The position numbers were made by a program, and so were the translations under genes. Below are positions 20,150 to 64,000 of a DNA stretch of 64,000 nucleotides, piece by piece (position 1 is the first letter of the stretch; every line of letters starts with the position of its first letter). The stretch spans positions 5,404-69,403 of the IMG/VR virus record IMGVR_UViG_3300001199_000001, one strand, 5' to 3'. The stretch comes from a virus (lineage: Duplodnaviria; Heunggongvirae; Uroviricota; Caudoviricetes). The notes below the pieces were generated by a model. The model did not search any database. It worked only from the letters and a program-made list of their open reading frames with translations, and was not told the origin of the DNA.

Positions 20150-20533
20150 TTATCCCGATGTCAACACATTATCACGTCCCCGCATCAACCGCATGAGCAC
20201 CGCGCGCAGGGCTGATTGCTCGTAAGGCTTCTGAAGGAAGGGCAGGGTCTGATCCGGGACATTCTCCTTGTTATAACCGGTTGACAGCACAAAGGGGATT
20301 CCACGTCCTTGGAGTGCAGTAGCTACCGGGCAGCTATACACTCCGTTCAGGTTGAGGTCGAGAACCGCCATGTCTATCGACTCACTCTCGATGATCGCGA
20401 GAGCCTGCTCGACGCGTGCTGCGGGACCTATGACCTTGCAACCAAGGTCGGCTAACATGTCTTCCAGCACCCAGGAAACCATGAGTTCGTCCTCGACTAC
20501 GAGGACGCGGCGACCCAACAGCGGGCTAGTCAT
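20150..20533 (-). CDS. single-domain response regulator (CheY-like receiver, LovR-like)
   Basis: RVLVVEDELMV...VIGPA...IDMAVLDLNL...PFVLSTGY receiver motifs. Confidence 0.8.
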   Translation of the reverse strand: MTSPLLGRRVLVVEDELMVSWVLEDMLADLGCKVIGPAARVEQALAIIESESIDMAVLDLNLNGVYSCPVATALQGRGIPFVLSTGYNKENVPDQTLPFLQKPYEQSALRAVLMRLMRGRDNVLTSG

Positions 20534-23060: not shown

Positions 23061-23324
23061 CTAAGCATCGCTACTCACCGGGTCCTTCGCCAGCGCCAAC
23101 GCCTCTTGCAGCGTCTCGACGATCTCTTGAAGTTGTCCTCGCGAGAGCCACATCCAAGCTTTCTCATCCTTGCCTACAGCGAGGTAAACTGGACAGCTTC
23201 TAACCGCGCTGCCCCAGTCAGTCTCCTTCACCTTGACGCGAATAGGGTAGTAGCGCCCAACGGATTTATCCATCAGGATGGTCAGCGGTTTATCGTCATC
23301 GTTTCCTAGATTGCTACCACTCAC
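23061..23324 (-). CDS. hypothetical protein
   Basis: 87 aa ORF. Confidence 0.45.
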   Translation of the reverse strand: MSGSNLGNDDDKPLTILMDKSVGRYYPIRVKVKETDWGSAVRSCPVYLAVGKDEKAWMWLSRGQLQEIVETLQEALALAKDPVSSDA

Positions 23325-27450: not shown

Positions 27451-28518
27451 TTACCTGACAGCAGTCAACACATTTGGGTTGGGCGCGGTGCGTCTCTGTG
27501 CGTTCGTGTAAGTGAACGGCGCTGTGACTTTTTGCGGATCGCGCGTGACGGGATAGCCCGTAATTTCGGTCGGCCATTGGGCAACCTTATATACCCGCAT
27601 CGAGCGGCGTGTACGACCCGCGACGAAGTCGTTCCAAGCCGTACTAATCAACCCGAACCAAGTGTCCACGTTGAGTGACGAACCGCGACGCAGATTGAGC
27701 GTAACATTGCGCAGCGCTAGGATCGGACTGCCCTTTTCGAGTTCCGCCCCCGACGAAAGCTTGGCAAGAAATTCCGACCACTTGTCGGCATACTCGCCGG
27801 ATGCTGTCGCCATCCAGCCGACCGCGCTGAGCGCCGACATCGAGACTGGCGGTCTGGCGGTATCGATTTTGGAGACGATCTGCTGGATTTCGGGGTGTTG
27901 GCGTACGAAATCGAGCATTTCGTTCTTACTGATCGTATTGTTCCGTGTAGGCAGCAACTGGTTCCACGTGATGATCAGGCGGACCGCAGCGGCGACCTTG
28001 GTCGCTTGGACGATGCCAGCGCCGCTGAGCGTGTCGGAGGCGCTGCGCTTGGCGCCTTGGTCCAGGGTGGAGAAAGTGTCTTCTTCGAGACCGCGAACGA
28101 CCATCATGCGAACCGGGGTCTTGGCGAGGAGGACGGCGGTGAGGCGGTGTTGACCGTTCAGGAGGCGACCGTTGCTAGCAAATTGAATGGGCTCGCCATT
28201 CATCTTCCACATGCCCATGCTCATTTGCCGGGCGAGAGATTCGACATGTTTGCGTCGAATAGGGCGGTTGCCCCAATTGGTGGTCGACAGATACTGATCG
28301 GCGACCTCCGGAGTGATAATTTCGTCCGACCACGAAAGGTGGGATGCGACGTGAACTGATTTGGACTTCGCAGCGGCCATGCCGTTACCTCCTGAGTTGA
28401 TGGTTTCTAACTCATAGTCGCCTTCGTTTCCCGTTGTCAACTCATTAGTGACAGCCTCGATGAACTGAGATTGGGGAGGCTTGGTCCGCCTCGAAAAGAT
28501 CAAATCCATTAGACTCAT
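27451..28518 (-). CDS. ParB-like nuclease domain (ParBc/DUF262-like) protein
   Basis: NGRLLNGQHRLTAV motif resembles DGQ(Q/H)R of ParB/DUF262. Confidence 0.5.
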   Translation of the reverse strand: MSLMDLIFSRRTKPPQSQFIEAVTNELTTGNEGDYELETINSGGNGMAAAKSKSVHVASHLSWSDEIITPEVADQYLSTTNWGNRPIRRKHVESLARQMSMGMWKMNGEPIQFASNGRLLNGQHRLTAVLLAKTPVRMMVVRGLEEDTFSTLDQGAKRSASDTLSGAGIVQATKVAAAVRLIITWNQLLPTRNNTISKNEMLDFVRQHPEIQQIVSKIDTARPPVSMSALSAVGWMATASGEYADKWSEFLAKLSSGAELEKGSPILALRNVTLNLRRGSSLNVDTWFGLISTAWNDFVAGRTRRSMRVYKVAQWPTEITGYPVTRDPQKVTAPFTYTNAQRRTAPNPNVLTAVR

Positions 28519-29630
28519 ACAACCACCCCTCCGTTGGCTGGGTTTTCCCGCACGACGCCGGTCCGTTCGTTGGGCGGGAAACAGAGAGAATAATGCAGAC
28601 CGGTGAAACGATATTCGAGGCGGGCGATGCCGTTGACCTCATTGGGTAGGCCCCTGGTCAAAAGACGCGTTCCGAAGGATGTTTTTTTAGGCCGTTCGAC
28701 ATACGGTCCGCCGCTCTCGTCCCAGCCCAGGCAAATCTCATTTTCACTGACGTGGACGCTGAGATTGACTGCGCCGTTGTATTCCGCGCTCCACGCCCCG
28801 TGCTTGGCGGCGTTAGTGGCCAATTCATGTAAGGCCATGCCAATCGACACCGCGTAATTCGGGTGAAGTTCGATATCCTTGCCGACCACCGTATAAACCT
28901 TGCCGTAAGGTGCGAGCAGGCGGTCGACCAACTCCCGGAAAAACACATGCGACCAGTGATGCTCGACTAGCAGATTATGGGTTTGCGAGAGCGCCATGAG
29001 ACGCTTCTCGAACGTCATCGCGAACTGCTCCTTCGACTCCGCCGCGCGCAAGGTCTGCTGGGCGATGGACTGCACCGACGCGAGTGTGTTCTTGACGCGG
29101 TGGTTCAGTTCGTCGATCAGCAGTTGCTGCCTACGATCATGCTCCTTCAGCGCAATCATCTCGTCCGATTTCTGCTGTAGCGCTAGGTAGGCGGCTTCCC
29201 GGTCACGCAACGCTTCGTCCTTCGCTCGAATCTGGTTTTCGAGCATTGAGGGAGAGGGTATCGCAAGCAGTTGCGGCGTCAAGGGCATCAACATTAATGC
29301 CGTAATCACTGACACTGAGGCGGTGACAGCCTTGAGCAAGGCCTCCACTCCGTAGTGTGGGTTCCACAGCGTCCAGATGGAAAAGAAGTGGGTCGTGCCG
29401 CAGAGCAGGATGAACGACACGAACAGCCAGCCCATCCACCCAAAGCTCAAACCCCTCCGCTTCAATAAGAAATAACCGATGGCGAACGGAATCGAATAAT
29501 ACGCCAGCCCGATAAGCACGTCGGAAGCGACATGGACAATGAGGATGTCAGGGCGCCATAATAAGCAGAGCCCGTGGGGATTTAGAAACTCGGAATCGAA
29601 GAAATATCGAATCCGTTCAATGATATTCAT
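28515..29630 (-). CDS. membrane-anchored HWE (HisKA_2) sensor histidine kinase
   Basis: N-terminal multi-TM domain; ELNHRVKNTLASVQSIAQQT H-box; C-terminal ATPase. Confidence 0.75.
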   Translation of the reverse strand: MNIIERIRYFFDSEFLNPHGLCLLWRPDILIVHVASDVLIGLAYYSIPFAIGYFLLKRRGLSFGWMGWLFVSFILLCGTTHFFSIWTLWNPHYGVEALLKAVTASVSVITALMLMPLTPQLLAIPSPSMLENQIRAKDEALRDREAAYLALQQKSDEMIALKEHDRRQQLLIDELNHRVKNTLASVQSIAQQTLRAAESKEQFAMTFEKRLMALSQTHNLLVEHHWSHVFFRELVDRLLAPYGKVYTVVGKDIELHPNYAVSIGMALHELATNAAKHGAWSAEYNGAVNLSVHVSENEICLGWDESGGPYVERPKKTSFGTRLLTRGLPNEVNGIARLEYRFTGLHYSLCFPPNERTGVVRENPANGGVVV

Positions 29631-31211: not shown

Positions 31212-32683
31212 TTATGCGTTCGCCCCGTTTCCGTTCGGCTTGCGCTTGGCCGGGACGACGGTCTCATTCGGGTGGAGCGTACCCACCGCCTTAGTGACGA
31301 TGGCCTGCCCCTCAGGTGTCTGTGCAAGGCCGGTTAGCATGGAGCCGATAGCCTGACCGCCCTTCGACGAGAACAGATCAGTGATCTTGCCGATGCCGGT
31401 CTGCACGTCGCCGCCGTTGACGATTACCTTCACGTCCGCCGCCTTGATGGCTTCGGCTTGCGCCACCCCGACGACTTGGTTGGCCTTCACCTGCTCGACA
31501 CTGACCAGATAGGTTTGATAGCCGGTGTTGCCGCCGATCTCACGGGCCAATTCCATCTGTGGCGCCACTTCAGCCAGTCCCTTGGCTTTCACGGCTTCAG
31601 CTTCGGCGAGGCCTCGCGCCTGAATGCCTTGAGCTTCCTTGATGGATTCTTCGAGGTTGCCTTCGGCGATCAAAATGGTCTGGTTTTTCTCGCCTTCGGC
31701 TTCGATTCGACGGCGTTCACGAACCGCTTCGGCGTCCACAACGGCGACATTCTTGTCCTGCTCGGCCTTAACCTCAGCCACCGCCTTGTCTTGCTGCGCC
31801 TTGATTTCAGCTACCTGCCGGTTGATCTCGGCGGCCCGTGTCATCTCGACCTGCTTGACCGCGTAATCTTTCTCGGCGGTGGTGCGGGATTCTTCGAGAA
31901 CCTGTTGCTCAGACCGCTGCTTCGCGATGCCGACGGCCTGCTCTTGCTGCGCGGTACGCTCGCCGACCTGTTGTGCGGCTTCCTGTCCAGCCAGATCGAT
32001 CTGACGGCGAGCTTCGATTTCACGCTCTTCGGCTTCGCGATGGTTTTCCGCAACAGCGACGCGGCTTTCCTTCTCGATGCGGGATTTCTCTTTGGCCATG
32101 ATGTTCTCAATGACCTTCGAGCCGTTTGAGTCACGGATGTCCATGAACTCGATGGTCTTGACCGTCTGAACGCCCCATTCCTTCAACTGTCCGTCGACTT
32201 CGGAAGTGAAACGCTCACCGAGCGACGAGCGGTCATGCATGATCGTCTCAAGCTGAGACTGTCCAAGCACGGTCCGGACGGCACCTTGCAGCACGGCGTG
32301 AAGCTGTTCAGTCAGTTCGGCGAAGTTGGCGACGCGGTGCGCGGCTACGTCCGAATCAGCGATCCGGAAGAAGGCCATGACATCGACGCGAAACGGCAGG
32401 CGTCCCTGGTCATAAGCTTCGTAATCCTTCAAGCCGACGTTGAAGACGCTCTCAGGAAGCTCGACCTGCGTGACGCCGAAGAACGGAACGAAACCGGGGA
32501 TTTCATAATAGACGTTCCCGGCTGTCCGGCCCTTGCCGTAGGAAGTCGTTGCTCGGCGTGATTGAACGATGTGCACCATATTGGTTGGTACGACCCGGCG
32601 CAGCACCATCATGATGATGGTTACGAGGACAACGAGGCCAAGCGCCACGCCTCCCCCGATCATTGCAATAATACTACCCATGA
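31212..32683 (-). CDS. SPFH/band-7 (flotillin-like, YqiK-type) protein with long coiled coil
   Basis: N-terminal TM, SPFH core, EA-rich coiled coil; GGAG RBS before ATG 32683. Confidence 0.7.
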
Positions 32684-32697
32684 CTCTGATGCTCCGG

Positions 32698-33252
32698 TTA
32701 TTTTCTGAGGTTTTTGGTGTCGACCTTGACCAAGGCGTCAAGGTGCTTATCGACAGAGGCGACGGCCTCATCACGAAGCTGCTCTTTCATCGCGCCGATG
32801 ATGTTGACGGCGTTCTGCTTGACGAGGTCGATAAAGGCCTCGCTGACGAACTTGCCGACCATCCATTCGGCGCGCGTCTTAGCGCCTTGTTTGTCGTAGT
32901 AGCCGCTGCTGGAAGAGAGTTCCTTGCCGCTCTTGTCGACAAGCTTAGACCAGAAGTCCTTCGATTTTTCGTTCAAGGTATCGCGGATGCTGATCGGCTG
33001 ACCGGCAGCTTGGCCATAAATATCGACAGGCTGGATCGGCTGCGTGAGCATAGACTCAAGCCGGTCATTGAGGAGGTCGTCGATCTTCGATGTGATCTTC
33101 GCGCCTATCGCCTCATCGACGCGTTTATCAATCAAACGACCAACGCGGTCGCCAACGTAGCCGGACGATGCGGCATCATCAGCTAGCTTCCGAGCGGCGC
33201 GCTCAAGGATTTGCTCGCGGATTTCTTCTTGGGAAAGGCCAAGGTCGATCAT
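32698..33252 (-). CDS. hypothetical protein
   Basis: 184 aa ORF. Confidence 0.55.
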   Translation of the reverse strand: MIDLGLSQEEIREQILERAARKLADDAASSGYVGDRVGRLIDKRVDEAIGAKITSKIDDLLNDRLESMLTQPIQPVDIYGQAAGQPISIRDTLNEKSKDFWSKLVDKSGKELSSSSGYYDKQGAKTRAEWMVGKFVSEAFIDLVKQNAVNIIGAMKEQLRDEAVASVDKHLDALVKVDTKNLRK

Positions 33253-42046: not shown

Positions 42047-42811
42047 TTAGGGGATCGACGCCAGTCGCAATGTTCCGTGTCGCGGAAAATTCACTGCGTC
42101 TACAGTCGAGCTTCCAGTAGCTTGGCAGCAGATGATCGCAGAAGGCCCGCCGCCGTTCCCGTTAAACACGCCGACAGCTAAGTTACCGCTGGCGAATGCT
42201 TCTGAATCGAGATTGGTCCGCCAAGATAATACTAAGGGAAGGCCGTCCTGTTTACCCTCTTCGTATGGCGTATGGCCGTGGACGATGTGAGGCCAGTCCG
42301 GGAAACCCGCTTCACTATTCAAGAAGAGGCCTCTGATCCACATCATCGTATTTGCGTCTTGCTCGGTTAAAGGCACGTGAGGCCTAAAGCCTGCATGCAC
42401 GAATACTCGCCCGGCTTTTTCGACGACGTAGGGTAGGTTCTCGATCCACCGAATGTGGGCGGACGGGATCAGTGGCCAGTAGTTGGGCTTACCCCATCCG
42501 ACCTCGCCACCGTAGCTCTCAATGGCCATTTCCCCACCGTTGTCCTGCCAGAAGCGAACCTCTGAACGTGTACGGAGGGTGTAAGCCTCAAGCATCAACT
42601 GCTCGTGGTTGCCCCGTAGGCAGGTGACATTATCCTGCGTCGATAGCTCGATCAGCTTGTCTAGAACCTGCTTCGATTGCGGGCCACGGTCGACGTAGTC
42701 GCCTAGAAAGACGATCTCATGCTCTTGCCCCGACGCGTGAGCGGCAATCGCGTCGAGCGCCTGCGTCAGCAGATCATACCGTCCGTGGATATCGCCGATA
42801 GCGAAAATCAT
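42047..42811 (-). CDS. PPP-family Ser/Thr protein phosphatase (lambda phosphatase/ApaH-like metallophosphoesterase)
   Basis: IGDIHGRYD...VFLGDYVDRGP...LRGNHE motifs. Confidence 0.75.
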   Translation of the reverse strand: MIFAIGDIHGRYDLLTQALDAIAAHASGQEHEIVFLGDYVDRGPQSKQVLDKLIELSTQDNVTCLRGNHEQLMLEAYTLRTRSEVRFWQDNGGEMAIESYGGEVGWGKPNYWPLIPSAHIRWIENLPYVVEKAGRVFVHAGFRPHVPLTEQDANTMMWIRGLFLNSEAGFPDWPHIVHGHTPYEEGKQDGLPLVLSWRTNLDSEAFASGNLAVGVFNGNGGGPSAIICCQATGSSTVDAVNFPRHGTLRLASIP

Positions 42812-45946: not shown

Positions 45947-46350
45947 TAGGGTGCGAGCCTTCTGCCGAGATTGTCGGTGGTGTCCGGGTCGAGTAGTTTA
46001 GCCAGCTTGGCTTCGGCCGCCTCCATGATCGCCTGCCGGTTCACCACGCCCCGCTCTTCGGCGTAGGCGACTGCGGCGAGAACATCGCCGAGTTCCTTTT
46101 CGAGGCAGGTGCGCGGCGTCTTGTCCATATCGACGTGTCCGGTTAGCGGGTCTTTGACGCCGGGCGTGTCGATACCGAACCGTCCGGCCTTGCCGATCAA
46201 CTGCGCAACCTCGCCCATTTCTTCCGTCAGAAGAGCTAGGAAATACTGCTCGGCGTTGCGGTTGTCAGCGTCATTCACCATAGCGCAAACCCCTATTTCG
46301 TCAAGAATTTTGTCAAGGAAACCAAACTTCCATGTCAACGTGGCTGACAT
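45946..46350 (-). CDS. MazG-like nucleoside triphosphate pyrophosphohydrolase
   Basis: LLTEEMGEVAQ...EKELGDVLAAVAY (EExxE...ExxD MazG motifs). Confidence 0.65.
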   Translation of the reverse strand: MSATLTWKFGFLDKILDEIGVCAMVNDADNRNAEQYFLALLTEEMGEVAQLIGKAGRFGIDTPGVKDPLTGHVDMDKTPRTCLEKELGDVLAAVAYAEERGVVNRQAIMEAAEAKLAKLLDPDTTDNLGRRLAP

Positions 46351-46910
46351 CAGCCCCCGCCGTATAACCCAATAGCGGTGGTGAAGCGAGGCTCGGCGAC
46401 GCCCGTGCCATAGAGCCATTTGTCGCGGCGCCCGTAGGAGCCGATCTCGACGTAACCGATGTTCAGGTCAAAACCCTCTTCGGTCATGATCCAGTTAACC
46501 ATTCCGTCTAAGGCTCCGGCGGCCTTAACCTCGGTGTTGGCAAACTGGTAGGCGTCTTGACGCAGCCGGGTTAACGCTCGCTCAGAAAGATCGTCGTTCT
46601 GATAAAGCTCGACCTTCATGAAGTGTTTCTGGTGCAGTCCGTCGTTCAGTTCGGTAAGGCGGAAACACGGGGTGCAGGCGACGAACCTGCCCTTGCCAAG
46701 CTCAGCGACATTATCGAGGTGTAAGAAAGATTGTTCGGCTGATCCCACAAGAGTGCCGATGGAGGTCCGCGCCCCCTCTCGCCAAGCGTCTGGCTGTGCG
46801 GTGATCGCGACAATTTCGTCAGGCACAGCCCAAGGCGCTTCTATATATGTATAGCCCTTGGTCTGGTAGTAGGTGACCGCACGGCTCAGGCGACCCCAGT
46901 TGATGGTCAT
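46350..46910 (-). CDS. hypothetical protein
   Basis: 186 aa ORF. Confidence 0.55.
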   Translation of the reverse strand: MTINWGRLSRAVTYYQTKGYTYIEAPWAVPDEIVAITAQPDAWREGARTSIGTLVGSAEQSFLHLDNVAELGKGRFVACTPCFRLTELNDGLHQKHFMKVELYQNDDLSERALTRLRQDAYQFANTEVKAAGALDGMVNWIMTEEGFDLNIGYVEIGSYGRRDKWLYGTGVAEPRFTTAIGLYGGG

Positions 46911-48446: not shown

Positions 48447-50246
48447 ATGTCCGGACTCGCTCCGAACTCCTCGAATTATCAAAGAGTTTCACGCGCCGTC
48501 GATCAGGCCGTCCATCTGCTTGTCCACCCCGAATATGAGTACTGGCTTCCGGAATGGCGGAAGATCAGGGACGCTCTGCGTGGCCAAAAGGAGATCAAGC
48601 AGAAGTCCGAGAGCTACCTGAAGCGTATGAAGGGGATGGACGACGAGGACTACGAAATCTATCTCGACCGCGCCTTGTTCTACAACATGACCGCGCAGAC
48701 CCTGAACGGCATGATCGGTCAGGTTTTCCGGCGCGAGCCCATCGTCCGCAACCTGCCGGACAAATTTAAGAACGCTGTCCGTAAGTTCGCTAAAGACGGA
48801 ACCAGCCATATCGGGCTGGCCAAGACCAGCATGGGCGAACAGCTATCGCTGGCTCGTTTTGGCATTCTCGTCGATGCGGCGGCTTCCGTACAATTGGAAA
48901 GCCCGTCTTCGTACGCCGTCGGCTACCAGACAGAAGATATCCTTGATTGGACCGTTGAAGAGGTCGACGGATTTTATCGCCCGACACGCGTCCTGCTGCG
49001 GGAATATGTCCGCGACGACTCGTTGTCGGCGAGCAATGCGCCGAGCGATACGGTCTCCCGCCGTGGAGCCGGTCCCCGCGTCAATGTGTCTAAAGCACGG
49101 GCTGGCATGCAGCCGAAACGCTCGTACACGAACTTCCAATATAAGGTGATCTACCGGGAACTCCTGCTGATCCCGCATCCTCGTCACCCGCAATTCGAAC
49201 GTGTGTACGTCCAGCGTCTTTATGACACAGACCCGCAGTCAGCCCCATCGTCCGAAGTCGTTCCTGTCATTCGCGGCGTGCCGCTGCCGTTCATCCCCTT
49301 CCAGTTTTTCGGCTCGCGCACGAACACCGCTGATATTGAGCCGCCGCCGCTAAACGACATTGTCGATATTAACCTGTCGCACTACCGGACCTACGCTGAG
49401 CTTGAGTACGGTCGTACCTTCACGGCCTTGCCAGTCTATTATGCGCCGGGCGGTAACGACGAAGGGGCGTCCGCGTACCATATCGGCCCCAATATGGTTT
49501 GGGAGGTTCCGCCGGACGGGTCCGAGCCGGGCATCCTTGAATATAAAGGCGAAGGCCTGAAGGCGCTTGAAAAAGCGCTGGAACAAAAAGAACAGCAGAT
49601 CGCCTCCATCGGCGGTCGTCTGATGCCCGGTGCGTCGCGGTCGATCTCTGAGTCGAACAACCAGACTGCGCTACGTGAATCAAATGAACAGTCCTTGCTT
49701 CTCAACGCCATCCAGGCCTGTGAAGAGGGCTTTGCTGAAGTCATTCGCTGGTGGCTGATGTTCCGTGACGTGCCGCTGATCGAGACGCAGGGCCTCCGTT
49801 ACGAGTTCAACACCCAGTTCCTGTCTACGCCGATTGGCGCCCGCGAACTGCGCGCCATGCAGCTTATGTACAAAGAAGGCATCATCACTGACCAAATCTA
49901 CTACGAGTTCCTTAAGAAGGCCGAGGTCGTGCCGTCATCGTGGACCTTCGAAGAATACCAAAAGGCCCGCAAGGACCCGAACAGCTTCGTCAACAACCCC
50001 GACGCCCAAGCCCGTCAACGCGGTTATTCCGACCGCAAGCAGGAACTTGGCGTGGAGTCGACCGAGTTCGAGCAAGACATCCTCGACCGTGAGATCGAGA
50101 TCGAAGAAGAAAAGCTTGAAATTGCCGCCAAGGTTGGTTCGACCACCGTCGCAGCTTCCCGCAAGCTGGGCGATCCCGAGCAAGCTGAACCGGCGAAGGC
50201 TGATAAACTTTCTGCCAAGAAAGCCGCAGCAAAACCTAGCAAGTAG
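48447..50246 (+). CDS. putative portal protein
   Basis: 599 aa, first gene of late plus-strand block, followed by scaffold and capsid; no Walker A. Confidence 0.5.
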   Translation: MSGLAPNSSNYQRVSRAVDQAVHLLVHPEYEYWLPEWRKIRDALRGQKEIKQKSESYLKRMKGMDDEDYEIYLDRALFYNMTAQTLNGMIGQVFRREPIVRNLPDKFKNAVRKFAKDGTSHIGLAKTSMGEQLSLARFGILVDAAASVQLESPSSYAVGYQTEDILDWTVEEVDGFYRPTRVLLREYVRDDSLSASNAPSDTVSRRGAGPRVNVSKARAGMQPKRSYTNFQYKVIYRELLLIPHPRHPQFERVYVQRLYDTDPQSAPSSEVVPVIRGVPLPFIPFQFFGSRTNTADIEPPPLNDIVDINLSHYRTYAELEYGRTFTALPVYYAPGGNDEGASAYHIGPNMVWEVPPDGSEPGILEYKGEGLKALEKALEQKEQQIASIGGRLMPGASRSISESNNQTALRESNEQSLLLNAIQACEEGFAEVIRWWLMFRDVPLIETQGLRYEFNTQFLSTPIGARELRAMQLMYKEGIITDQIYYEFLKKAEVVPSSWTFEEYQKARKDPNSFVNNPDAQARQRGYSDRKQELGVESTEFEQDILDREIEIEEEKLEIAAKVGSTTVAASRKLGDPEQAEPAKADKLSAKKAAAKPSK

Positions 50247-51257: not shown

Positions 51258-52034
51258 ATGACCACCCTTAGGCGTTACGCGGACCATGCTGATTGGCCTA
51301 TAGCAGACTACCGTTGCACCTACCCCGGCCGATTTATGCCAAACGGCGGTGGTTCGATCATTCTCGGTGATCTCGATAGCCGGGGACGACATTATGCCGC
51401 TGCCGGTGGCCAGTATATCGAAGTCGATTTATCTAGGACGATTTTGTCATTAACCGACGCCGTGGGACTAGCGGATTTTATCCGCGATCTCACGCTTCAA
51501 ATGGGCAACATCTATCCGTCTATCGAACTCTATAGCGGTAATTTTTACGATTTCCGGAACATCGAGGATAATGAGATCGACATCGAGGATGTCGCTCATT
51601 CGCTCTCGATGCAGTGTCGGTTTGGCGGCCACTGTTCGGAGTTCTATTCGATTGCCGAGCACTCGGTCAGGGCATCGTTCATCGATCCCGATCATGACGC
51701 CTTTGACAAACTTATGCACGACGCCGCCGAGAGTGTGGCGGTTGATTTGCCTACTCCGTTCAAACGTCTCCTGCGGGATTACACCCGAATTCTAGAGCGC
51801 ATCGAGGCAAACTTCGCAGATGTCTTTGGCCACCGGCACCCGCTCCCTGAGTCAGTAAAACATGCAGACCTGACCATGCTCGCGACGGAGAAGCGCGATC
51901 TTAAGAAGACGAACAATCAGTGGGGAATGCTCGAAGGCGTGCCGACCCTGCCCGACATCATCCAGCCGTGGACTCAGAAGCAAGCGAAACAAGCCTTTTT
52001 GGATCGCTACGAGCAACTGAAACACACGGCGTAA
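51258..52034 (+). CDS. HD-domain phosphohydrolase
   Basis: VAHSLSMQCRFGGHC..FYSIAEHS...LMHDAAE...DLPTP. Confidence 0.65.
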   Translation: MTTLRRYADHADWPIADYRCTYPGRFMPNGGGSIILGDLDSRGRHYAAAGGQYIEVDLSRTILSLTDAVGLADFIRDLTLQMGNIYPSIELYSGNFYDFRNIEDNEIDIEDVAHSLSMQCRFGGHCSEFYSIAEHSVRASFIDPDHDAFDKLMHDAAESVAVDLPTPFKRLLRDYTRILERIEANFADVFGHRHPLPESVKHADLTMLATEKRDLKKTNNQWGMLEGVPTLPDIIQPWTQKQAKQAFLDRYEQLKHTA

Positions 52035-52240: not shown

Positions 52241-52647
52241 TGTCTAAGACCAAGGAAGATTGCAAAGTGAAGTTCGAACAGAACATCAACTTCAAGGGCT
52301 TTAGGGCCGATCCTGTGTTCGATAACACACGGACGCTGGAGGCTTGTGCGACGAAGTTCAACGCACAGGAACTCGCCAAGGCCTGGGCTCAGCCTGTACC
52401 TACTTACGATTATCGTAACATCAATATCGTCGTGAATGTAACCGCAGCCACGGCAAGTCTTGAGCAGATGAAGATCGCCTTTGCAAAAACCGCTGATTTT
52501 GCCAAAGCCAATCGCATTAAGGCAGCCGAAGCTTTGTTGGCAGATAGGGCAAAAGCGACTTTTTACGCGAAAGAGGGAAAATCCACTCCCGAGTTATCGA
52601 TGTTCGATAAAGCCCGCGCGACGCTTAAAAACAAGCACCGCTCATAA
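52240..52647 (+). CDS. hypothetical protein
   Basis: 135 aa ORF. Confidence 0.55.
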   Translation: MSKTKEDCKVKFEQNINFKGFRADPVFDNTRTLEACATKFNAQELAKAWAQPVPTYDYRNINIVVNVTAATASLEQMKIAFAKTADFAKANRIKAAEALLADRAKATFYAKEGKSTPELSMFDKARATLKNKHRS

Positions 52648-52656
52648 AAATAAAAG

Positions 52657-52691
52657 TCCCGGACCGCCTTGGGTTTTAACGGTCCGGGACC
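52657..52691 (+). terminator. perfect 11-bp stem hairpin (possible terminator without U-tract)
   Basis: GTCCCGGACCG-ccttgggttttaa-CGGTCCGGGAC. Confidence 0.45.
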
Positions 52692-52743
52692 CTCAAGAAG
52701 CAGTGGCTGGCAACCCTTTCACCGTCCACTGTCAACACATTAT

Positions 52744-53206
52744 CATGGCTGTCATCAGACGCAAGCGTAAACGGAAGAAGACGGCTATCGCAGTTCGCTT
52801 CTCCCATCGGACACATCCCGCGAAGATGTACAAGGCGCCGCCCGGTGTTTGTAGCTGGTGTGCGAGCGACATCTTGACCCTCGAAGGCAAGATCAACGCG
52901 AACAAGAAGTTCTGCGGACGCATCTGCGAAGATTCCTATAAAATCCACACTGATTCAAAGGCTTGGCGGAAAGAGGTCTGGCAGCGTGATCGCGGGTTCT
53001 GCCGCGAATGTGGCAAGAAACATCCACTCGACGGTAAGGAGTGGGAAGCTGATCACATCCAACCTTTGTTCATTTCCTGCGGCGATTGGAACTTCTGGTC
53101 TCCTGAGAATGGCGCGGTCTTGTGTAAGTCACCTTGTCATAAGATTAAGACCGAAGCTGATCGTCAGAAGTATTTAACTCCAAGACCAGTAAAACGCCGT
53201 CGTTGA
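52744..53206 (+). CDS. HNH endonuclease (second)
   Basis: CRECGKKH...EADHIQP...NGAVLCKSCH..K. Confidence 0.75.
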
Positions 53207-53428
53207 AGAAGAAATTTTCCAGTAGTCAACACCTTGTTTGTGCGAATTCTTGACAAACCAATTGGTTTGGTGTAGAAGGCATGCAAGCTGCAATAACAAA
53301 GAAACAAATTGCAGTGTCCCGACAAGACGACCTTACGCCCAATACCGACGTGGGTGGGTCTCTTTCTCGTCCGCGACGGGTCGTCGCCCAGCACTGGGGT
53401 CCAGTGTTTCCCTCTGAGAAAGTATACA

Positions 53429-54220
53429 ATGCCTGTTTTGACTTTTGATGCTCTTGAAGATGTGCCGGAAGGCCTTCGAGATTTTGCGAAAGACCATGGT
53501 GACGGCAAAATCACCGTGAACGTTGTTCCAGAAACGAAGCTTAGCGAGTTCCGGGATAACAACATCAACGTCTCCAAGGAGCGCGACCAGCTTCGGGAAG
53601 CCGTTGACAGACTGAAGAACATCGTGGGTGAAGACCCCGAAGCGTTCGAAAAGGATTTGGCGGAACTCCGCGTGACCCGAGATCGGGTGGCTGCCGGGGA
53701 ACTGCGTGAAAGTCGGGCTCTGGAAGAAGCCATCGGCAAGCGTACTGAAGAGATGCGCAAGAAGTTTGAAGAAGAGCTTCAAGGCCGTGGTCGCGAACTA
53801 GGTGCTTGGAAGGATAAATATGGAACACTGGACCGGCGCTACCGCGACGAAAAAGTGATCCAAGCGGTGAAGGATGCGGCTACGTCCCCGGACTCTGGGG
53901 TGCAGCACAAGGCCATCAGCGATGTCGCCAAACGGGCTCTCGAAGTCTTCAAGGTGATGGACGATGGACGCATCATTCCGATGAACGGTGACGTGCCGAT
54001 CTACGGAACCAACGGGGTTGACCCGATGACTCCGAACGAATGGCTCGCCAAGCTGAAGGACGAAGCTCCGTACTTCTTCATGGGCACCCAAGGCGGTGGC
54101 GCTGGCGGTGATCCCGGTAAAAAGACGGGTCTCGGCATGTCGTATGCCGATCTTTCGAAGCTCTCGGCAACTGAAAAGTTGGCGCTGGCGAACAAAGAAG
54201 GCCGTCCTTTCGGCAAGTAA
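53429..54220 (+). CDS. putative scaffolding protein
   Basis: coiled-coil, acidic, immediately upstream of capsid gene; start MPVLTFDAL. Confidence 0.5.
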   Translation: MPVLTFDALEDVPEGLRDFAKDHGDGKITVNVVPETKLSEFRDNNINVSKERDQLREAVDRLKNIVGEDPEAFEKDLAELRVTRDRVAAGELRESRALEEAIGKRTEEMRKKFEEELQGRGRELGAWKDKYGTLDRRYRDEKVIQAVKDAATSPDSGVQHKAISDVAKRALEVFKVMDDGRIIPMNGDVPIYGTNGVDPMTPNEWLAKLKDEAPYFFMGTQGGGAGGDPGKKTGLGMSYADLSKLSATEKLALANKEGRPFGK

Positions 54221-54223
54221 CTG

Positions 54224-54236
54224 AGTCACTTTAAGT
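54224..54236. repeat. AGTCACTTTAAGT motif copy 2
   Basis: 3 nt after scaffold stop; part of palindrome GTCACTTtaagtgaAGTGAC. Confidence 0.7.
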
Positions 54237-54387
54237 GAAGTGACTGGACTAAAAATTTGTGGGGTTGGATTCGTCCAACCCCGCTCCAAACAACCCTTGG
54301 GGACGCTGGACGCCCGAGGGGGAAGCCCGAGGCGGGGGGCCTGCCTCCTCAACCAGTCTAGCGTAACCCTTGAGGAGAATTCAGCTT

Positions 54388-55323
54388 ATGGCTGCTCTCA
54401 CACTGTTGCAAGCTGCCGAACAGGCGATGGGCAACGAAGAAATCAAGCGCGCCGCGATCATCGAACTGTTCGCTCAGCCTGACCTCCTTCGTGTCCTCCC
54501 GTTCATGGATATTCCGGGCAGCGCCTATTCGTATATCCAAGAAGGTCAGCTTCCGGGCGTCGCCTTCCGTGGTTACAACGAGTCTTACTCGACCACCACG
54601 GGCGTCGTTAACCCGCAAGTTGAACGCCTCCGCATCGCGGGCGGCGATCTGGATGTGGACAAGGCCCTCCTGAAGACGCACGGCGCGGGCGTTCGCTCGA
54701 CGCAAGAGCGTATGAAGGTTAAGGCCCTCTCGCTCTACATCTCGGGCAAGATGATCAACGGCGACTCCGACGTTGATCCGCGTGAATTCGACGGCCTCCG
54801 TAAGCGCATCGTCGGCGATCAGAAGATCGCTGCTGGTTCGACCGGTGGTGGCGACGCGCTGTCCCTGTCGGTTCTGGATGAAGCTATCGACGCTGTCGAC
54901 GGCGCCACCCACCTGATCATGTCCAAGAAGATGCGTAACCGCCTCTCGGCTGCTGCGCGTAACACCGGCACGACCGGCTTCATGGTCTGGGACAAGGACG
55001 AGTTCGGCAACCGTGTCGCTTTCTACAACGACATTCCGATCCTCGTGACTGACTACGACGACACCAACACTCAGGTCATCGCTTTCAACGAAGCATGCCC
55101 CGGTGGCGGTTCGGCGGTCGGTACGTCGATCTACGTCGTCAACATGAGCGACACCGGCGTTTGCGGTCTGCAAAACGGCGTCATGGAAGTCACCGACCTT
55201 GGTGAAGTCCAAGACAAGCCGGTTCTGCGCACCCGCGTTGAGTGGCTGATCGGTCTGGCCGTGCTCCACGGTCGTGCCGTTGCTCGTATCTGGGGCATCA
55301 AGGACGCGGCGGTGACGGCTTAA
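54388..55323 (+). CDS. putative major capsid protein
   Basis: GAGGAG RBS; 311 aa following scaffold; strong terminator two genes downstream. Confidence 0.55.
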   Translation: MAALTLLQAAEQAMGNEEIKRAAIIELFAQPDLLRVLPFMDIPGSAYSYIQEGQLPGVAFRGYNESYSTTTGVVNPQVERLRIAGGDLDVDKALLKTHGAGVRSTQERMKVKALSLYISGKMINGDSDVDPREFDGLRKRIVGDQKIAAGSTGGGDALSLSVLDEAIDAVDGATHLIMSKKMRNRLSAAARNTGTTGFMVWDKDEFGNRVAFYNDIPILVTDYDDTNTQVIAFNEACPGGGSAVGTSIYVVNMSDTGVCGLQNGVMEVTDLGEVQDKPVLRTRVEWLIGLAVLHGRAVARIWGIKDAAVTA

Positions 55324-58394: not shown

Positions 58395-58796
58395 ATGCCG
58401 GTCCTTTCATACGAAGTTCATGAAAATATCCTGAATTGGATGAAGGGCTCGGCGTTCCCCTCGGCTCCGGCGTCTCTGCGCTTGGCCTTGCTTACGGCAG
58501 AGCCTAATCCGGATGGTACCGGTATAGCGGAGCCCAACGGTGGTCACGGCTATGGTCGCCAAGTCGTTGCGTTCGGTGCGATCACGACGGACAACGGTAT
58601 CTCAACGATGAAGAATTCCGCTCCGGTGGTGTTCGGTCCAGCTTCTACTTCGGGCTGGGCGACCGCCACCCATGTCGGCCTCTTCTCCGTTGGGGGTGAC
58701 CTTCTTGCTTACGGTCCTCTGCCTGCGCAGCGCACGGCGCCGCTGGGCGATACCATTTCTTTCGGTGCTGAAGCCGTACAGATTCGTCTAAAGTGA
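58395..58796 (+). CDS. hypothetical structural protein (related to 59536..59937)
   Basis: shared LALLT..P..DGTG...G.....G...LFS pattern. Confidence 0.5.
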   Translation: MPVLSYEVHENILNWMKGSAFPSAPASLRLALLTAEPNPDGTGIAEPNGGHGYGRQVVAFGAITTDNGISTMKNSAPVVFGPASTSGWATATHVGLFSVGGDLLAYGPLPAQRTAPLGDTISFGAEAVQIRLK

Positions 58797-59535: not shown

Positions 59536-59937
59536 ATGGCGAACGCAATCTACCCCAAGGCCAAGGAGCAATTCCTCCAAGGCGGAATCAACATGTCATC
59601 GGACACCATCAAGGTGGCCCTGATCGACACCGGCACCTACACCTATTCGGCAGCCCATGACTTCTGGGATGACGCATCGGCTGGTGTTATCGGGACCCCG
59701 CAAACGCTGGGCACCAAGACCTTCACCAGCGGCGTTTTCGACGCCGCCGACTCGACCTTCACCTCGGTTTCGGGTGCGACGGTTGAAGCGCTGATCATCT
59801 ACAAGGACACCGGCACCCCGGCTACTTCGAACCTGATCGCGTACATCGACTCGGGTACGGGCCTGCCGGTTACGCCCAACGGCGGTAACATCAATGTGGT
59901 CTGGGACTCTGGCGCCAATAAAATCTTCGCGCTCTGA
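59536..59937 (+). CDS. hypothetical structural protein
   Basis: GGAGAC RBS-like; 133 aa. Confidence 0.55.
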   Translation: MANAIYPKAKEQFLQGGINMSSDTIKVALIDTGTYTYSAAHDFWDDASAGVIGTPQTLGTKTFTSGVFDAADSTFTSVSGATVEALIIYKDTGTPATSNLIAYIDSGTGLPVTPNGGNINVVWDSGANKIFAL

Positions 59938-59956: not shown

Positions 59957-59997
59957 GTAAGCTTTGGCGAAGGAGATCGGTTTTCGCCGGTCTCCTA

Positions 59998-60015: not shown

Positions 60016-60363
60016 ATGGCTAGGCTTCTTTTCCGCGCACACGCGACTGTCTCGAACACGCCCGGTACCGGCAGTTTTACGCTGTCCACCGCAGCGTTCA
60101 CCGACACCCTTGCGTGGTCCACGGCGGGCGCAGAAGACGGCCATCAATACGCCTACCTCGCTATCGAGGGTACAAGCTGGGAGGCAGGCGAGGGAACCTA
60201 CACCAGCGGAACCCTGACGCGAGATAAAATCCTCAAGTCCTCGAACAGCGACAACGCCGTCACCTTCACGTCGGCTGTCACCGTCGCGTCCACGCCTGGA
60301 CCCACTCATCTTCAAAGCCGTGGTCGTATCCTGGCTTTGTCAAACCGCATTCCGCTTTTCTAA
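60016..60363 (+). CDS. fiber-like N-terminal module protein (paralog of 63751 ORF start)
   Basis: NTPGTGSFTLSTAAF...GTLTRDKILKSSNSDNA vs TGTGTITMGSAVSGF...TTLTRGVRKSNAALSSN. Confidence 0.5.
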   Translation: MARLLFRAHATVSNTPGTGSFTLSTAAFTDTLAWSTAGAEDGHQYAYLAIEGTSWEAGEGTYTSGTLTRDKILKSSNSDNAVTFTSAVTVASTPGPTHLQSRGRILALSNRIPLF

Positions 60364-60375: not shown

Positions 60376-60795
60376 ATGGCTGCGAACGTCGAGCCTATTT
60401 ATACTAAAACGCCCCATATTGAATGGATCAGCTATATCGTAACCGCCAACACCACGGCGGACCTTACTGCTGGCACGAGCTATCTGACCTTCACCGCCAC
60501 GACGAACGGGTCGTTCTTGTCCCGCCTGCGTTTCAGACCAACGCCTGCGGGCAACACTACGGCGACTGTCGCCCGTATTTGGATCAACAACGGCGCGACC
60601 ACCGGCACGGCAGCGAACAACATTCTATTCGACGAAATCACCCTACCTGCCATCACTGCATCTTCTACAGCCGCTACGGCTGGATATGACGTACCGGTCA
60701 ACTTTCCGCTGCCTAACGGTTATCGAGTTTATGTGACTATCCATACAGGGTCAGCAAACGGCTGGGCTTGCTCATCTATCGGGGGCGACTACTAA
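60376..60795 (+). CDS. hypothetical structural protein
   Basis: 139 aa ORF. Confidence 0.5.
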   Translation: MAANVEPIYTKTPHIEWISYIVTANTTADLTAGTSYLTFTATTNGSFLSRLRFRPTPAGNTTATVARIWINNGATTGTAANNILFDEITLPAITASSTAATAGYDVPVNFPLPNGYRVYVTIHTGSANGWACSSIGGDY

Positions 60796-60986
60796 TGCAG
60801 GCCGTCTTCAATAAAATCGAATTCGAGTACGGGAAACAAGGCGAGGCCATTCAGGTCGTTGTCGATGGCATAGAGCAAGGCATCTTCTCACTCGATGGCC
60901 AAGCCATCACATTAGAAGGTGAATACGGCTACAAATTCACTGAACAGGACATCGAAGCGCCAGCATGGTTTGAATTCGGGGAATAG
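60795..60986 (+). CDS. hypothetical protein
   Basis: TAATG coupling. Confidence 0.45.
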   Translation: MQAVFNKIEFEYGKQGEAIQVVVDGIEQGIFSLDGQAITLEGEYGYKFTEQDIEAPAWFEFGE

Positions 60987-60989: not shown

Positions 60990-61886
60990 ATGGATTTCCA
61001 TGGCTTTCCTCGTTTACCTGAATTTGATCGATTCAAGTTATTCACGCCGTCTGATGCTGGTTTGGCTCAGGCGGTTCTTTGGCACGTCCCTTCGACGGCT
61101 GTAGGGCTCCTTATTTCAGTTGTAGGTGGTGGCGGCGGCGGCGGCGGCGGCAATTCCGGATCAACGGGCACTACTCGGGGCGGCGGCGGCGGCGGTAGTT
61201 CATCTTCTTTGGCAACCTGGATCGGTCCGGCCAATCGCCTCCCGTCTATGCTTTATTTCTACATTGGAAATGGTGGTTTAGGCGGCGCAGCAGGCGTCAA
61301 CGGCACGGCGGGTGGACAAACGAGAGTCCACGTAGGTACAGGTACAACAGGGGCTTCGTGTCTACTGGCAGTCAATGGGGGAAATGGCGGCACGGCGGGA
61401 AGCGCTGCTGGCGGTACTGGCGGGACGGCTCCGACGGCCATAGCAATGACTTCAAGCTCCTTTTCAGCGACCGGCTTGTGGCAAGCCCTGACCGGTTTAG
61501 CCGGGCAGGCAGGGCGAACGGACAGCAATTTCACTGCCGACCCCATCAACAGCACGCCCTTGTGCAGAGGCTGGGGTGGTGGCGGATGTAACGCGACTGA
61601 TGTTGCAGGTACCGGAGGCGGCTCAACACAGATGTCTTTAGGGGGTATTGGAATCCCCCCCATAAATGGCGGCGCCATAAATGGTGGAGCAGGTACGAGT
61701 GGGTTACTTATCCAAAGACCGTTAGCAAGTTTAGGTGGCGCTGGTGGTGGTGGGCACGGTACGGGAACGGGCGGAGCAGGCGGCGGCGGCGGGCCAGGGA
61801 CAGGCGGCGGTGGTGGCGGCGCTGGTGTCACAGGCGGAGCAGGCGGTAACGGCGGTTCTGGTTTTGTCCTAGTTAACTGGTGGTGA
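60990..61886 (+). CDS. glycine-rich protein, paralog 1 (C-terminal ...GSGFVLVNWW)
   Basis: 298 aa, more than 40% Gly; conserved N-terminal block and WW terminus shared with next two genes. Confidence 0.65.
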   Translation: MDFHGFPRLPEFDRFKLFTPSDAGLAQAVLWHVPSTAVGLLISVVGGGGGGGGGNSGSTGTTRGGGGGGSSSSLATWIGPANRLPSMLYFYIGNGGLGGAAGVNGTAGGQTRVHVGTGTTGASCLLAVNGGNGGTAGSAAGGTGGTAPTAIAMTSSSFSATGLWQALTGLAGQAGRTDSNFTADPINSTPLCRGWGGGGCNATDVAGTGGGSTQMSLGGIGIPPINGGAINGGAGTSGLLIQRPLASLGGAGGGGHGTGTGGAGGGGGPGTGGGGGGAGVTGGAGGNGGSGFVLVNWW

Positions 61887-61887
61887 A

Positions 61888-62724
61888 ATGCTGGACTTTG
61901 GACCTCATCCTATCCCCAAAAACGTAGCCGTCTTCGCACGCGCCGCCGCTGCCACCGATTTCATGACTTTTATACGCCCAAGGGGAGCCAATACCCTAGG
62001 TATTTTCCTGCTATCTGCTGGAGGCAATGGTGGCGCGGGAGCATCGGGCGCCGCTGCGTCAAGTAGAATCGGAGGCGGAGGCGGAGGCTCTGGCTCGTAT
62101 CTTAACTGGCTGGGACCTATCAGCGTTCTTCCAGAGGTTCTGTATATTTACACAGGGCTTGAAAACAACACGTCAATTTCTATAGAGCCTACAACAATCG
62201 CCGCTGTAAAGCTTTTAGGTGCGCCGAACGGTGCAAATGGGAACGCAGGCGGAGCGGGAGGAGGAAGCGGGGGCGCTGGCAGTACACCAAACATCGCCAG
62301 CCACAGTCCTCTATCAATTCATGGGATGTTCACCTCAGTGGCAGGTGTGGCGGGCGGAAATGGCGGCGCGGCAGGGTCTGCCGGTACGTCCACGACGGTT
62401 TTGAATAATCACATCCTTGCTGGAGGCAATGGAGGATCGGGCGTGACATCAACCGATGTCCCCGGTGTCAACAGCCTGTCTAACGTCAATGAAATTATAC
62501 CATCTATATTGAGCACGAACGCAGCAAGCGCGCCTGCGGGATTTTGGTCGTGGCGTCCGTATTGCGGATCGGGCGGAGGCGGCGGAGGGTCCGTGAACTC
62601 CGGAACGGGCGGGGCCGGTGGAGCGGGGGCTTTTGGCTGCGGCGGCGGGGGCGGCGGAGCGGGCACAACCGGTGGCGCAGGTGGGGTGGGAGGCAGCGGT
62701 CTAGTTGTTATAAGCTGGTGGTAA
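61888..62724 (+). CDS. glycine-rich protein, paralog 2 (C-terminal ...GSGLVVISWW)
   Basis: 278 aa. Confidence 0.65.
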   Translation: MLDFGPHPIPKNVAVFARAAAATDFMTFIRPRGANTLGIFLLSAGGNGGAGASGAAASSRIGGGGGGSGSYLNWLGPISVLPEVLYIYTGLENNTSISIEPTTIAAVKLLGAPNGANGNAGGAGGGSGGAGSTPNIASHSPLSIHGMFTSVAGVAGGNGGAAGSAGTSTTVLNNHILAGGNGGSGVTSTDVPGVNSLSNVNEIIPSILSTNAASAPAGFWSWRPYCGSGGGGGGSVNSGTGGAGGAGAFGCGGGGGGAGTTGGAGGVGGSGLVVISWW

Positions 62725-62727
62725 GTT

Positions 62728-63606
62728 ATGGATGATTTTGCTTTTTTCACCCGCCCTGCCGCAATCGACAGGACGACTATCTTCGTTTCAGCGACACCAC
62801 TCAGTACAGCGGCGAACGACTGGCAAAAATGGCATCGTCCGAGAGCCGCTACGATGATTCAAGCCTTGATCATTGGCGCTGGAGGTGGGGGAGCCAACGG
62901 GTCTTCAGGAGCGTCTGGGACGAACAGGGCTGGCGGCGGAGGCGGCGGCTCCGGTGCTGTCATGAAGGCGCTTTTTCCCGCCTCCTTATGCCCGGAAGTG
63001 TTGTACGTCCGTCCCGGCAAAGGCGGCGATGCCGCCACATCCGGTACCTTCTCCTTCGTCGCTTTTGCCCCGTCAAACGCTCAAAATGCTTATCTCTTGC
63101 TAGAAGCATCAGGCGGTTCCGGCGCGACTACCGTCACGGGAGGCACGCAAGGAGCGGGGGACTCTCTAACTACCAAACCTCTTACCGCATGGGGTTTTTT
63201 GACTAGCTCAATCGGCCAAGCTGGAACGGCGGGCGGGACTTCGACAGGGGCTGCTGGCACCGCAGCAGTGGTGCTTAACTCCCATTTCTTAACGGGAGGA
63301 ACGGGAGGTGGGAGCGCTGGTGCATCTTCTGTGAGTTATGCAGGCGGGGCGATTACAGGCAAATCCGGTTATTTCCCGGACTTGGCCGGTGGTGTGGCTG
63401 GTGGAGGAGCCGGATCACATGGAATTTGGCGCCCGGAAATTTGGGCGGGGACAGGCGGAACGGGCGGCGGAAGCTCGTTCGACGGGGTTGGCGGCGCGGG
63501 CGGCAACGGCGCTTATGGGTGTGGCGGCGGTGGCGGCGGGGCTGGTGTCACAGGCGGCGCGGGAGGTAAAGGCGGAGACGCGTTGATCATGATCACGTGG
63601 TGGTGA
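62728..63606 (+). CDS. glycine-rich protein, paralog 3 (C-terminal ...GGDALIMITWW)
   Basis: 292 aa. Confidence 0.65.
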   Translation: MDDFAFFTRPAAIDRTTIFVSATPLSTAANDWQKWHRPRAATMIQALIIGAGGGGANGSSGASGTNRAGGGGGGSGAVMKALFPASLCPEVLYVRPGKGGDAATSGTFSFVAFAPSNAQNAYLLLEASGGSGATTVTGGTQGAGDSLTTKPLTAWGFLTSSIGQAGTAGGTSTGAAGTAAVVLNSHFLTGGTGGGSAGASSVSYAGGAITGKSGYFPDLAGGVAGGGAGSHGIWRPEIWAGTGGTGGGSSFDGVGGAGGNGAYGCGGGGGGAGVTGGAGGKGGDALIMITWW

Positions 63607-63678: not shown

Positions 63679-63750
63679 TTCCCGTCAATTAACCTTCGAC
63701 GCACGCCGTCGCTCTATTAGGGCGGTGGCGTTTTCTTTTAGGGCGGACCC

Positions 63751-64000
63751 ATGAGCCAGTATTTCAACCGCGTCTACGCGAGCACGGCGACGACCGGCAC
63801 CGGAACCATTACCATGGGCTCCGCCGTGTCGGGCTTTCGGGCGTTTTCGATTATCCCGTCGAACTGCGCGACCTATTATATGATCGAGGATGGCTCCAAC
63901 TGGGAATATGGGATCGGAGTCTGGAACGGTACGACGCTGACGCGTGGAGTCAGAAAAAGTAACGCAGCGCTCAGTTCGAACCTCTACCAACCGATCAACC
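63751..64000 (+). CDS. fiber-like protein, 3'-truncated by window
   Basis: MSQYFNRVYASTATTGTGTITMGS...; N-terminal module like 60016..60363. Confidence 0.5.
   Translation, partial: MSQYFNRVYASTATTGTGTITMGSAVSGFRAFSIIPSNCATYYMIEDGSNWEYGIGVWNGTTLTRGVRKSNAALSSNLYQPIN

Follow-up and report, generated by a model that had tools for sequence, protein, structure and literature searches.

We analyzed a 64,000-nucleotide (nt) stretch of viral DNA (hereafter the window), corresponding to positions 5,404 to 69,403 of the Caudoviricetes record IMGVR_UViG_3300001199_000001 in IMG/VR, which carries three tandem genes encoding glycine-rich paralogs. Our analysis indicated that the three genes probably encode stand-alone subunits of a virion fiber tip. 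They are part of a cassette in which a fiber protein and a 139-amino-acid (aa) partner precede the Gly-rich genes, and the number of Gly-rich copies never exceeded three. Fiber-tip subunits, a cassette and one shared three-fold tip together form the explanation that best accounts for the data, and as a whole we consider it probable.

The three adjacent genes lie on the + strand at 60990..61886 (copy 1, 298 aa, 31.5% Gly), 61888..62724 (copy 2, 278 aa, 25.9% Gly) and 62728..63606 (copy 3, 292 aa, 26.0% Gly), with spacers of only 1 and 3 nt between them. The open reading frames (ORFs) agreed exactly in position with an initial annotation made from the sequence, while the Gly content was well below the more than 40% that it had assigned to each protein. 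The family hidden Markov model (HMM) detected copies 2 and 3 with E-values of 1e-55 and 2e-76, respectively, and copy 1 is a putative fiber-tip adhesin subunit with a predicted TNF-like sandwich and polyglycine-II lattice. End-to-end alignment gave pairwise identities of 38-41% and bore out the described common N-terminal block and the C-terminal ...GGGGGGAG(V/T)TGGAGG.GG....WW block, with WW on all three copies; the residue preceding the G6 run is T in copy 1, not C. Relative to copy 1, copy 2 had a 13-residue deletion in the alignments, which corresponds to one Gly hairpin fewer. When the G-G columns were excluded, the window copies were only 19-25% identical, placing them among the most diverged arrays. 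A dN/dS (nonsynonymous to synonymous substitution) comparison of the copies, suggested by the initial annotation, would not be meaningful because dS is saturated: synonymous codon identity was already at background (0.25-0.32) at an amino acid identity of ~40%. Copies 1 and 3 shared 18/28 identical codons within their C-terminal 45 codons, against a background of ~0.3, and this region also contained a 17-nt exact match. A terminal aromatic residue was found family-wide, with W ending 81 of 117 homologs. We ruled out that the WW terminus is unique to the window phage, since the same ending occurs in 9 of 114 other homologs; it is a minority variant, and the window array was the only one seen with WW on all three copies.

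Few phage adhesin folds have solved structures; the glycine-rich polyglycine-II tip is one of them and is a target for host-range engineering. The AlphaFold2 (AF2) model of copy 1, with a predicted local distance difference test (pLDDT) score of 91.3, had the fold of the Bxb1 tail wing brush protein gp33, the Pam3 tail-fiber protein gp24 and the glycine-rich domain of ALK. In the model a TNF-like β-sandwich is fused to a lattice of Gly-rich hairpins, as in proteins of the Pam3 gp24 type, and the predicted fold is the same as that of Bxb1 gp33, a solved member of PF21722. The sole helix of at least four residues in the copy 1 model spans residues 157-161, the N-terminal 30 residues were modeled with low to medium confidence, and no N-terminal α-helical shaft of the Pam3 gp24 type was found in it. 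Pam3 gp24 combines a helical shaft, a TNF-like sandwich and a glycine-rich lattice; the TNF-like and Gly-rich domains recognize the host, and the less conserved distal ends of the lattice are proposed to bind the receptor (PMC9608196). Such Gly-rich domains have been classed as polyproline-II/polyglycine-II bundles like that of S16 gp38 (PMC13243192). We propose that each window subunit would likewise have a TNF-like β-sandwich, with the Gly-rich hairpins extending from it and packing as a polyglycine-II lattice.

Comparisons with profile collections placed the window proteins at the edge of the described family. Against Pfam PF21722 (Gly_rich_2), whose gathering cut-off is a whole-protein score of 24.3 bits, copy 1 scored 19.3 bits (profile positions 5-225 of 226) and copy 3 scored 14.0 bits, and copy 2 gave no match. 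PF21722 is carried by many close homologs, and Bxb1 gp33 itself scores 45.4 bits. The window proteins are therefore divergent PF21722 relatives and not formal members. PHROG 754 ('minor tail protein') was matched with an E-value of 2e-8. When the family profile was aligned to Bxb1 gp33 by hhalign the probability was 94.7%, and the match to this protein in a profile search of the PDB was marginal (E 0.07). The family is nevertheless a populous one of ~300-aa proteins in a large protein database: a profile search of 1.84 billion representatives returned 1,507 clusters at E ≤ 1e-30 and 8,206 at E ≤ 1e-3, the ~1,500 clusters at the stricter threshold being defined at 50% identity. In BFVD, 226 entries matched the copy 1 model at E ≤ 1e-3; many were named minor tail, tail fiber or glycine-rich domain, and in these matches the domain often formed the C-terminal end of a longer fiber protein. 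We also noted the Gly-rich domain at the C-terminus of much larger proteins of up to 1,047 aa (loci L028, L068, L082 and L013). Stand-alone and fused forms of the domain coexist in nature. An alignment of 111 family members showed near-invariant Gly blocks alternating with variable segments, the same layout as in gp38 and gp24, and the variable stretches may make up the exposed end, where contact with the host surface would occur. The N-terminal peptide of the tips has the pattern M-L-D-x-F-x-L-P. The collagen-like structure that the initial annotation had offered as one option did not hold, since the longest G-X-Y run had only 3-4 repeats, the Gly residues were located in poly-G blocks and the copy 1 model was a compact domain, unlike collagen.

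The second line of evidence came from the genes that accompany the Gly-rich copies. The 139-aa jelly-roll protein (60376..60795, +) is their invariable upstream partner, a homolog being located directly upstream of the Gly-rich genes in nearly all loci, and it was better conserved (55-74%) than the tips (~40%). It is a putative adaptor between the fiber end and the tips. Among the 45 de-replicated lineages described below, the slot upstream of the 139-aa gene was occupied by a long repetitive fiber ORF (up to ~2,300 aa) in 30 and by a ~115-120-aa protein in the window and five other lineages. In the window, this slot holds a 115-aa protein (60016..60363, +), for which jackhmmer searches, the upstream-ORF survey and an alignment of tails showed that a long fiber protein takes its place in most relatives. 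We rejected the 115-aa protein as a universal cassette member because it adjoins the 139-aa gene in only 6/45 lineages and a long fiber gene does so in most. Upstream proteins of 62 to 2,320 aa ended in a similar C-terminal tail, ...(F/Y)NYG...A....N(F/Y)LT (loci L133-L212; window positions 60319-60363), to which the tail of the window protein, ...RGRILALSNRIPLF, was a loose fit. This conserved fiber tail is a candidate for a universal peptide on which the adaptor/tip complex docks. The N-terminal domain of the 115-aa protein, as detected by jackhmmer, was common to the product of a 340-aa gene downstream of copy 3 and to fiber or spike proteins of 600-1,100 aa on other viral contigs, and it is probably a common virion-attachment domain.

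In about half of the lineages, a further gene separates the 139-aa gene from the first Gly-rich gene. In the window it encodes a 63-aa protein (60795..60986, +) of a conserved ~60-aa family, which was apparent from bimodal gap sizes and from an alignment of 30 homologs with the motif EFEYGY..FYQ...DLDGNTL.L..YGY....P.W. This protein could be an assembly factor. It was also considered as a homolog of Bxb1 gp32 (PF24243), but it had neither a Pfam match nor a convincing alignment with gp32. Taken together, we propose that the cassette would start with a fiber protein of any length that ends in the conserved C-terminal tail (here cut to 115 aa), that the 139-aa jelly-roll protein most likely links this tail to the tips, and that the optional ~60-aa protein and one to three Gly-rich genes would follow in one tightly packed expression unit. 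Among cultured phages, the 139-aa family was found only in Rhodobacter capsulatus phages of ~41 kb. In one of these, RcBaka, gp24 (the 139-like protein) and gp25 are encoded after the host-specificity protein and gp23 and ahead of the holin; gp25 has 296 aa with 31% Gly, matches the family HMM with an E-value of 7e-76 and is annotated as hypothetical. We also found the cassette on contigs that encode SU10-type portals, as well as on viral contigs 190-320 kb in length; ~350 viral loci were detectable. The fold of Bxb1 gp33 and Pam3 gp24, the fiber-type neighbors and the usual location of the cassette after a long repetitive fiber gene all support the fiber or receptor-binding role suggested in the initial annotation, in which the proteins would be present in the virion and bind a host receptor. 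At locus L101 (1467-4331) we observed the order [139-like][Gly-rich][139-like][Gly-rich], with the two Gly-rich copies 69% identical, a pattern which suggests that the whole pair, rather than just the tip gene, was duplicated recently.

We then determined how many Gly-rich copies accompany each partner gene. A first sample of homologs was obtained with a back-translated motif scan and our own HMM, and the copy-number census was anchored on the 139-aa gene, which made it unbiased as to the number of tips. Census loci were de-replicated at 95% identity and at least 4.3 kb of downstream sequence was required, leaving 45 lineages. Gly-rich copies were absent from 2 of these, and one, two and three copies were present in 7, 13 and 23, respectively; no lineage had four or more. 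The motif-based sample gave the same copy-number picture, and in triple arrays a single partner gene served all copies. Among copies with at least 45% identity outside the G-G columns, the nearest neighbor from another genome occupied the same array position in 29 of 29 cases. An earlier reading of a first small tree, in which copies clustered by genome with no positional orthology, was revised, as order was conserved wherever the signal was unsaturated. Within-genome paralogs were 32% identical to each other, against 25% for copies from distant genomes, and this held in 37 of 39 genomes (p 8e-8). Since neighbors shared their position in every unsaturated case and paralogs within a genome were more alike, the arrays are old, ordered and stably inherited, with never more than three copies, and have also been either re-expanded or slowly homogenized within deep lineages. 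The initial annotation had proposed diversification by tandem duplication along with a comparison of copy number among related phages. The genes are indeed tandem paralogs whose number varies from 0 to 3 among lineages, but there was no open-ended expansion: the array is old, keeps its order and is capped at 1-3 copies, never four.

The ceiling of three, the single adaptor gene per array and the tight packing led us to propose that the copies may occupy three positions of one three-fold tip. These positions would be equivalent and located at the end of one three-fold fiber, so that a phage with one gene would form a homo-oligomeric tip and the window phage a mixed tip with three different binding faces. 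The one to three genes would then encode interchangeable subunits of a single three-position tip, docked through the jelly-roll adaptor on a trimeric fiber tail, and phages with three genes would have a heterotrimeric adhesin. We offer this specific arrangement tentatively, as a possibility open to considerable doubt. What the data show is that the genes are paralogs, the fold, the existence of the cassette, the limit on copies and the conservation of their order; virion location, docking order and co-assembly are inferences drawn from these.

Several observations weigh against this proposal and against the broader explanation. The copy-number ceiling is the sole evidence for co-assembly, and we detected no deep position-specific signature, which is unexpected for an anciently specialized A-B-C trimer; below 45% identity the nearest neighbors were spread over all positions, the signal there being saturated. 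Pam3 gp24 is a homotrimer held together mainly by an N-terminal helical bundle (PMC9608196) that is absent from the window proteins. The chain counts of PDB entry 9D93 (gp30:gp31:gp33:gp29 = 3:6:3:3) are compatible with a single gp33 per wing, a stoichiometry of Bxb1 gp33 that was deduced from PDB chain counts only. Adaptor and tip genes are interleaved at L101, and the three window copies individually score below the PF21722 cut-off. The cassette of this phage is flanked by the capsid genes and by the expected tail genes, so that its products could belong to the tail, the neck or the head of the virion. Finally, the Gly-rich genes and their immediate neighbors had no counterpart in the collinear region of the related Caulobacter phage CcrSC, and for this reason we regard the Gly-rich module as accessory in this lineage.

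Nearly as likely as a shared three-fold tip, and to be held with similar caution, is that the paralogs are three independent receptor-binding proteins, each forming its own homo-oligomer or remaining a monomer and attaching separately, by means of their common N- and C-terminal features, to copies of one docking site. Such an arrangement would fit the extreme divergence of the copies outside the G-G columns, the concentration of variation between the Gly blocks, and the solved relatives, which are homotrimeric (Pam3 gp24, PMC9608196) or present at one copy per arm set (Bxb1); the order of genes at L101 likewise suggests self-contained pairs. However, open-ended diversification predicts no hard ceiling, and we found exactly three copies in 23 of the 45 lineages and four or more in none, with one partner gene for all the copies of a triple array. 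If the tips are independent, the phage would carry a mixture of tips with three specificities and a broader host range.

A location other than the tail was also considered, with the cassette forming a fiber or spike on the capsid or neck of an elongated-head giant siphophage. The Gly-rich genes are only 5.7 kb downstream of the major capsid gene and ahead of any recognizable tail-tube or tape-measure gene, the jelly-roll partner had a capsid cement protein as its best structural match, and PHROG 240 and some RefSeq records of phiCbK-like phages label the neighboring PF23140 homolog 'head protein'. These labels are unverified annotations, however, both solved phage relatives are tail components, and elsewhere the cassette follows long tail-fiber-like genes or a tail host-specificity protein; decoration of the head or neck therefore seems improbable.

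A further reading concerned the GGC tracts in copy 1. As the initial annotation had reported, copy 1 contains in-frame (GGC)7 and (GGC)5 tracts, although the (GGC)7 tract spans 61131..61151 (+) and not 61128-61152. It encodes 7 of the 9 Gly residues of the first poly-Gly block; the (GGC)5 tract (61179..61193, +) is in the second block, and we found an additional in-frame (GGC)4 tract at 61779-61790 (+). The initial annotation had suggested that the tracts could vary the length of the Gly run, which would make them a contingency locus where (GGC)n slips in replication and changes in Gly-run length produce phase-like variation of the tip. The (GGC)7 homocodon run was longer than expected from the Gly codon usage of copy 1 itself (p ~0.004), homocodon Gly tracts of 5-7 units recurred in 21 of 72 related arrays, and one in-frame GGA (Gly-codon) indel was found in a Gly run in a single pair of relatives at 89% identity. 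However, the segment containing the G9 run was 17 aa long in 97 of 117 homologs, with the G9 run itself in 15 of them, and the G9 run of copy 1 matched the family consensus. Arrays from different metagenomes at 92-97% DNA identity had equal lengths and zero indels, so that no repeat-length polymorphism was apparent among them. The same phage was recovered in a second assembly (Logan SRR2043728, L001), which was 100% identical over 11.3 kb and had the same tracts. The tracts never exceeded 7 units, and the poly-Gly segment encoded by (GGC)7 is predicted to be a core element and not a loop (pLDDT 97-98). Variation by slippage is thus very improbable. We conclude that the (GGC)7 tract is a consequence of biased codon use in poly-Gly coding rather than a device for variation, a conclusion that read-level data could still overturn.

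We compared the window genes with known systems. Bxb1 gp33 (PDB 9D93; PF21722) has the same fold but is a single-copy protein from a phage of a different host group, whereas the window has a triplet. At the tail tip of Bxb1, gp30 forms the wing base, gp31 is the arm placed on it and gp33 sits on gp31 (PMC12646305). The gene directly upstream of the Gly-rich genes in the window, in contrast, encodes the unrelated 139-aa jelly-roll protein and not gp31 (pairwise E 0.025 only). Pam3 gp24 (PDB 7YPX) has a helical shaft that drives homotrimerization and baseplate docking, and its gene is followed by that of the chaperone gp25; the window proteins are three paralogs that lack the helical domain, and we recognized no gp25-like gene. 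Gp38 of Salmonella phage S16 and T2-type phages is likewise a separate small polyglycine-II adhesin that is encoded just after the long fiber gene and caps the tip of gp37, and it has hypervariable segments between its Gly motifs (PMC9608196, PMC13243192). Attachment of the window tips to the fiber tail through the 139-aa protein would parallel gp38 on gp37 and gp33 on gp31, and a gp31 homolog is also encoded in the window (59536-59937). The ALK/LTK glycine-rich domain (PDB 7LIR, 7LRZ) is similar in fold only; it belongs to a eukaryotic receptor tyrosine kinase and binds cytokines. A precedent for the co-assembly of tandem paralogs is provided by gp131-gp135 of the jumbo phage phiKZ, which have shared terminal docking regions and co-assemble in one hetero-hexameric fiber (PMC13250141). 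The phiKZ paralogs differ in having β-propeller C-domains and another stoichiometry, and their assembly has been shown by cryo-electron microscopy, unlike that of the window proteins.

The window proteins are related, at some distance, to a known adhesin fold, and we found neither the triple arrangement with a dedicated adaptor nor the one-to-three copy rule in the literature searched. Our findings indicate that a large stand-alone subfamily of uncharacterized proteins travels as a defined cassette of fiber tail, 139-aa adaptor and one to three tips, so that a docking model and a role that can be tested are now available for these genes; hypothetical proteins of this kind, including RcBaka gp24 and gp25, can be labeled as fiber-tip components. 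The strict limit of three copies, a simple genomic rule, is indicative of tip stoichiometry. The C1q A/B/C head is made of TNF-like domains encoded by three tandem genes, and a heterotrimeric phage tip, if real, would be its phage counterpart. Such a tip would be a new way to make a polyvalent receptor-binding tip, would explain several specificities on one fiber and would offer a modular engineering scaffold. A three-position tip would also define an exchangeable cassette common to giant siphophages, SU10-type podophage contigs and Rhodobacter siphophages.

The remaining genes of the window were analyzed for the identity of the phage. The evidence points to a metagenomic relative of the phiCbK-like giant siphophages (Dolichocephalovirinae): the capsid protein was 82% identical to that of CcrSC, the DNA of the capsid and scaffold genes was 71-73% identical to phiCbK-like phages, and the left part of the window matched CcrPW, CcrColossus and several PHROGs. 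No tRNA genes were found in the 64-kb window. A prophage in a bacterial contig had been suspected from the HWE/PAS histidine kinase, SPFH, aldolase and further cellular-type genes in the left 37 kb, and was rejected on the basis of the capsid identity to CcrSC and the phiCbK-like matches.

Two fiber-related genes precede the cassette. The gene at 58395..58796 (+) encodes a 133-aa homolog of the fiber I protein gp80 of podophage GP4 (PF23140; Pfam E 1e-21), and PF23140 homologs were present in all phiCbK-like phages and duplicated in CcrSC (gp123 and gp129). The gene at 59536..59937 (+) encodes a 133-aa homolog of Bxb1 gp31, the protein that carries gp33 in Bxb1 and is named 'tail wing arm' as a chain of 9D93 (jackhmmer E 1.6e-53; PHROG 644 E 8e-42). 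It was 65-67% identical in DNA to many mycobacteriophage minor tail protein genes, and its product had just 32% protein identity to CcrSC gp133; this likeness at the DNA level between a Caulobacter-type giant phage and actinobacteriophages is striking. Terminator-like hairpins were present just before the 115-aa gene (59971..59996, +, 11-bp stem) and after copy 3 (63703..63731, +, 13-bp stem followed by TTTTCTTTT). They are suggestive of a possible upstream unit boundary and of a probable transcription-unit end, respectively, although terminator-like sites in the region were not more numerous than in shuffled sequences. The 340-aa gene begins at 63751..64000 (+) and continues past the window end; it corresponds to L001 positions 11024-12046, its N-terminal domain was detected by jackhmmer at E 1e-20, and the protein, which is fiber-like, had no Pfam or PHROG match.

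Outside this region, genes for an HNH endonuclease (52481-53206, +; PHROG E 5e-40) and a deoxyribonucleoside 5'-monophosphate phosphatase (51258-52034, +; E 1e-58) are insertions that separate the portal gene (48447-50246) from the scaffold/capsid genes (53309-55323). Five genes on the - strand are auxiliary genes typical of giant phages and encode a 185-aa protein in PHROG 'histidyl tRNA synthetase' (46350-46910), a NinI-like phosphatase (42047-42811), a DHH phosphoesterase (12160-13047; E 5e-99), an SPFH/Band 7 protein (31212-32774) and an aldolase-II/DFP-like fusion (23321-24670). Phage-encoded sensor kinases would be unusual, and the window has two sensor histidine kinases of the HWE type (20526-21602 and 28515-29630, both -), one with PAS domains and the other with an N-terminal match to ETR1_N (ethylene-receptor; E 5e-36).

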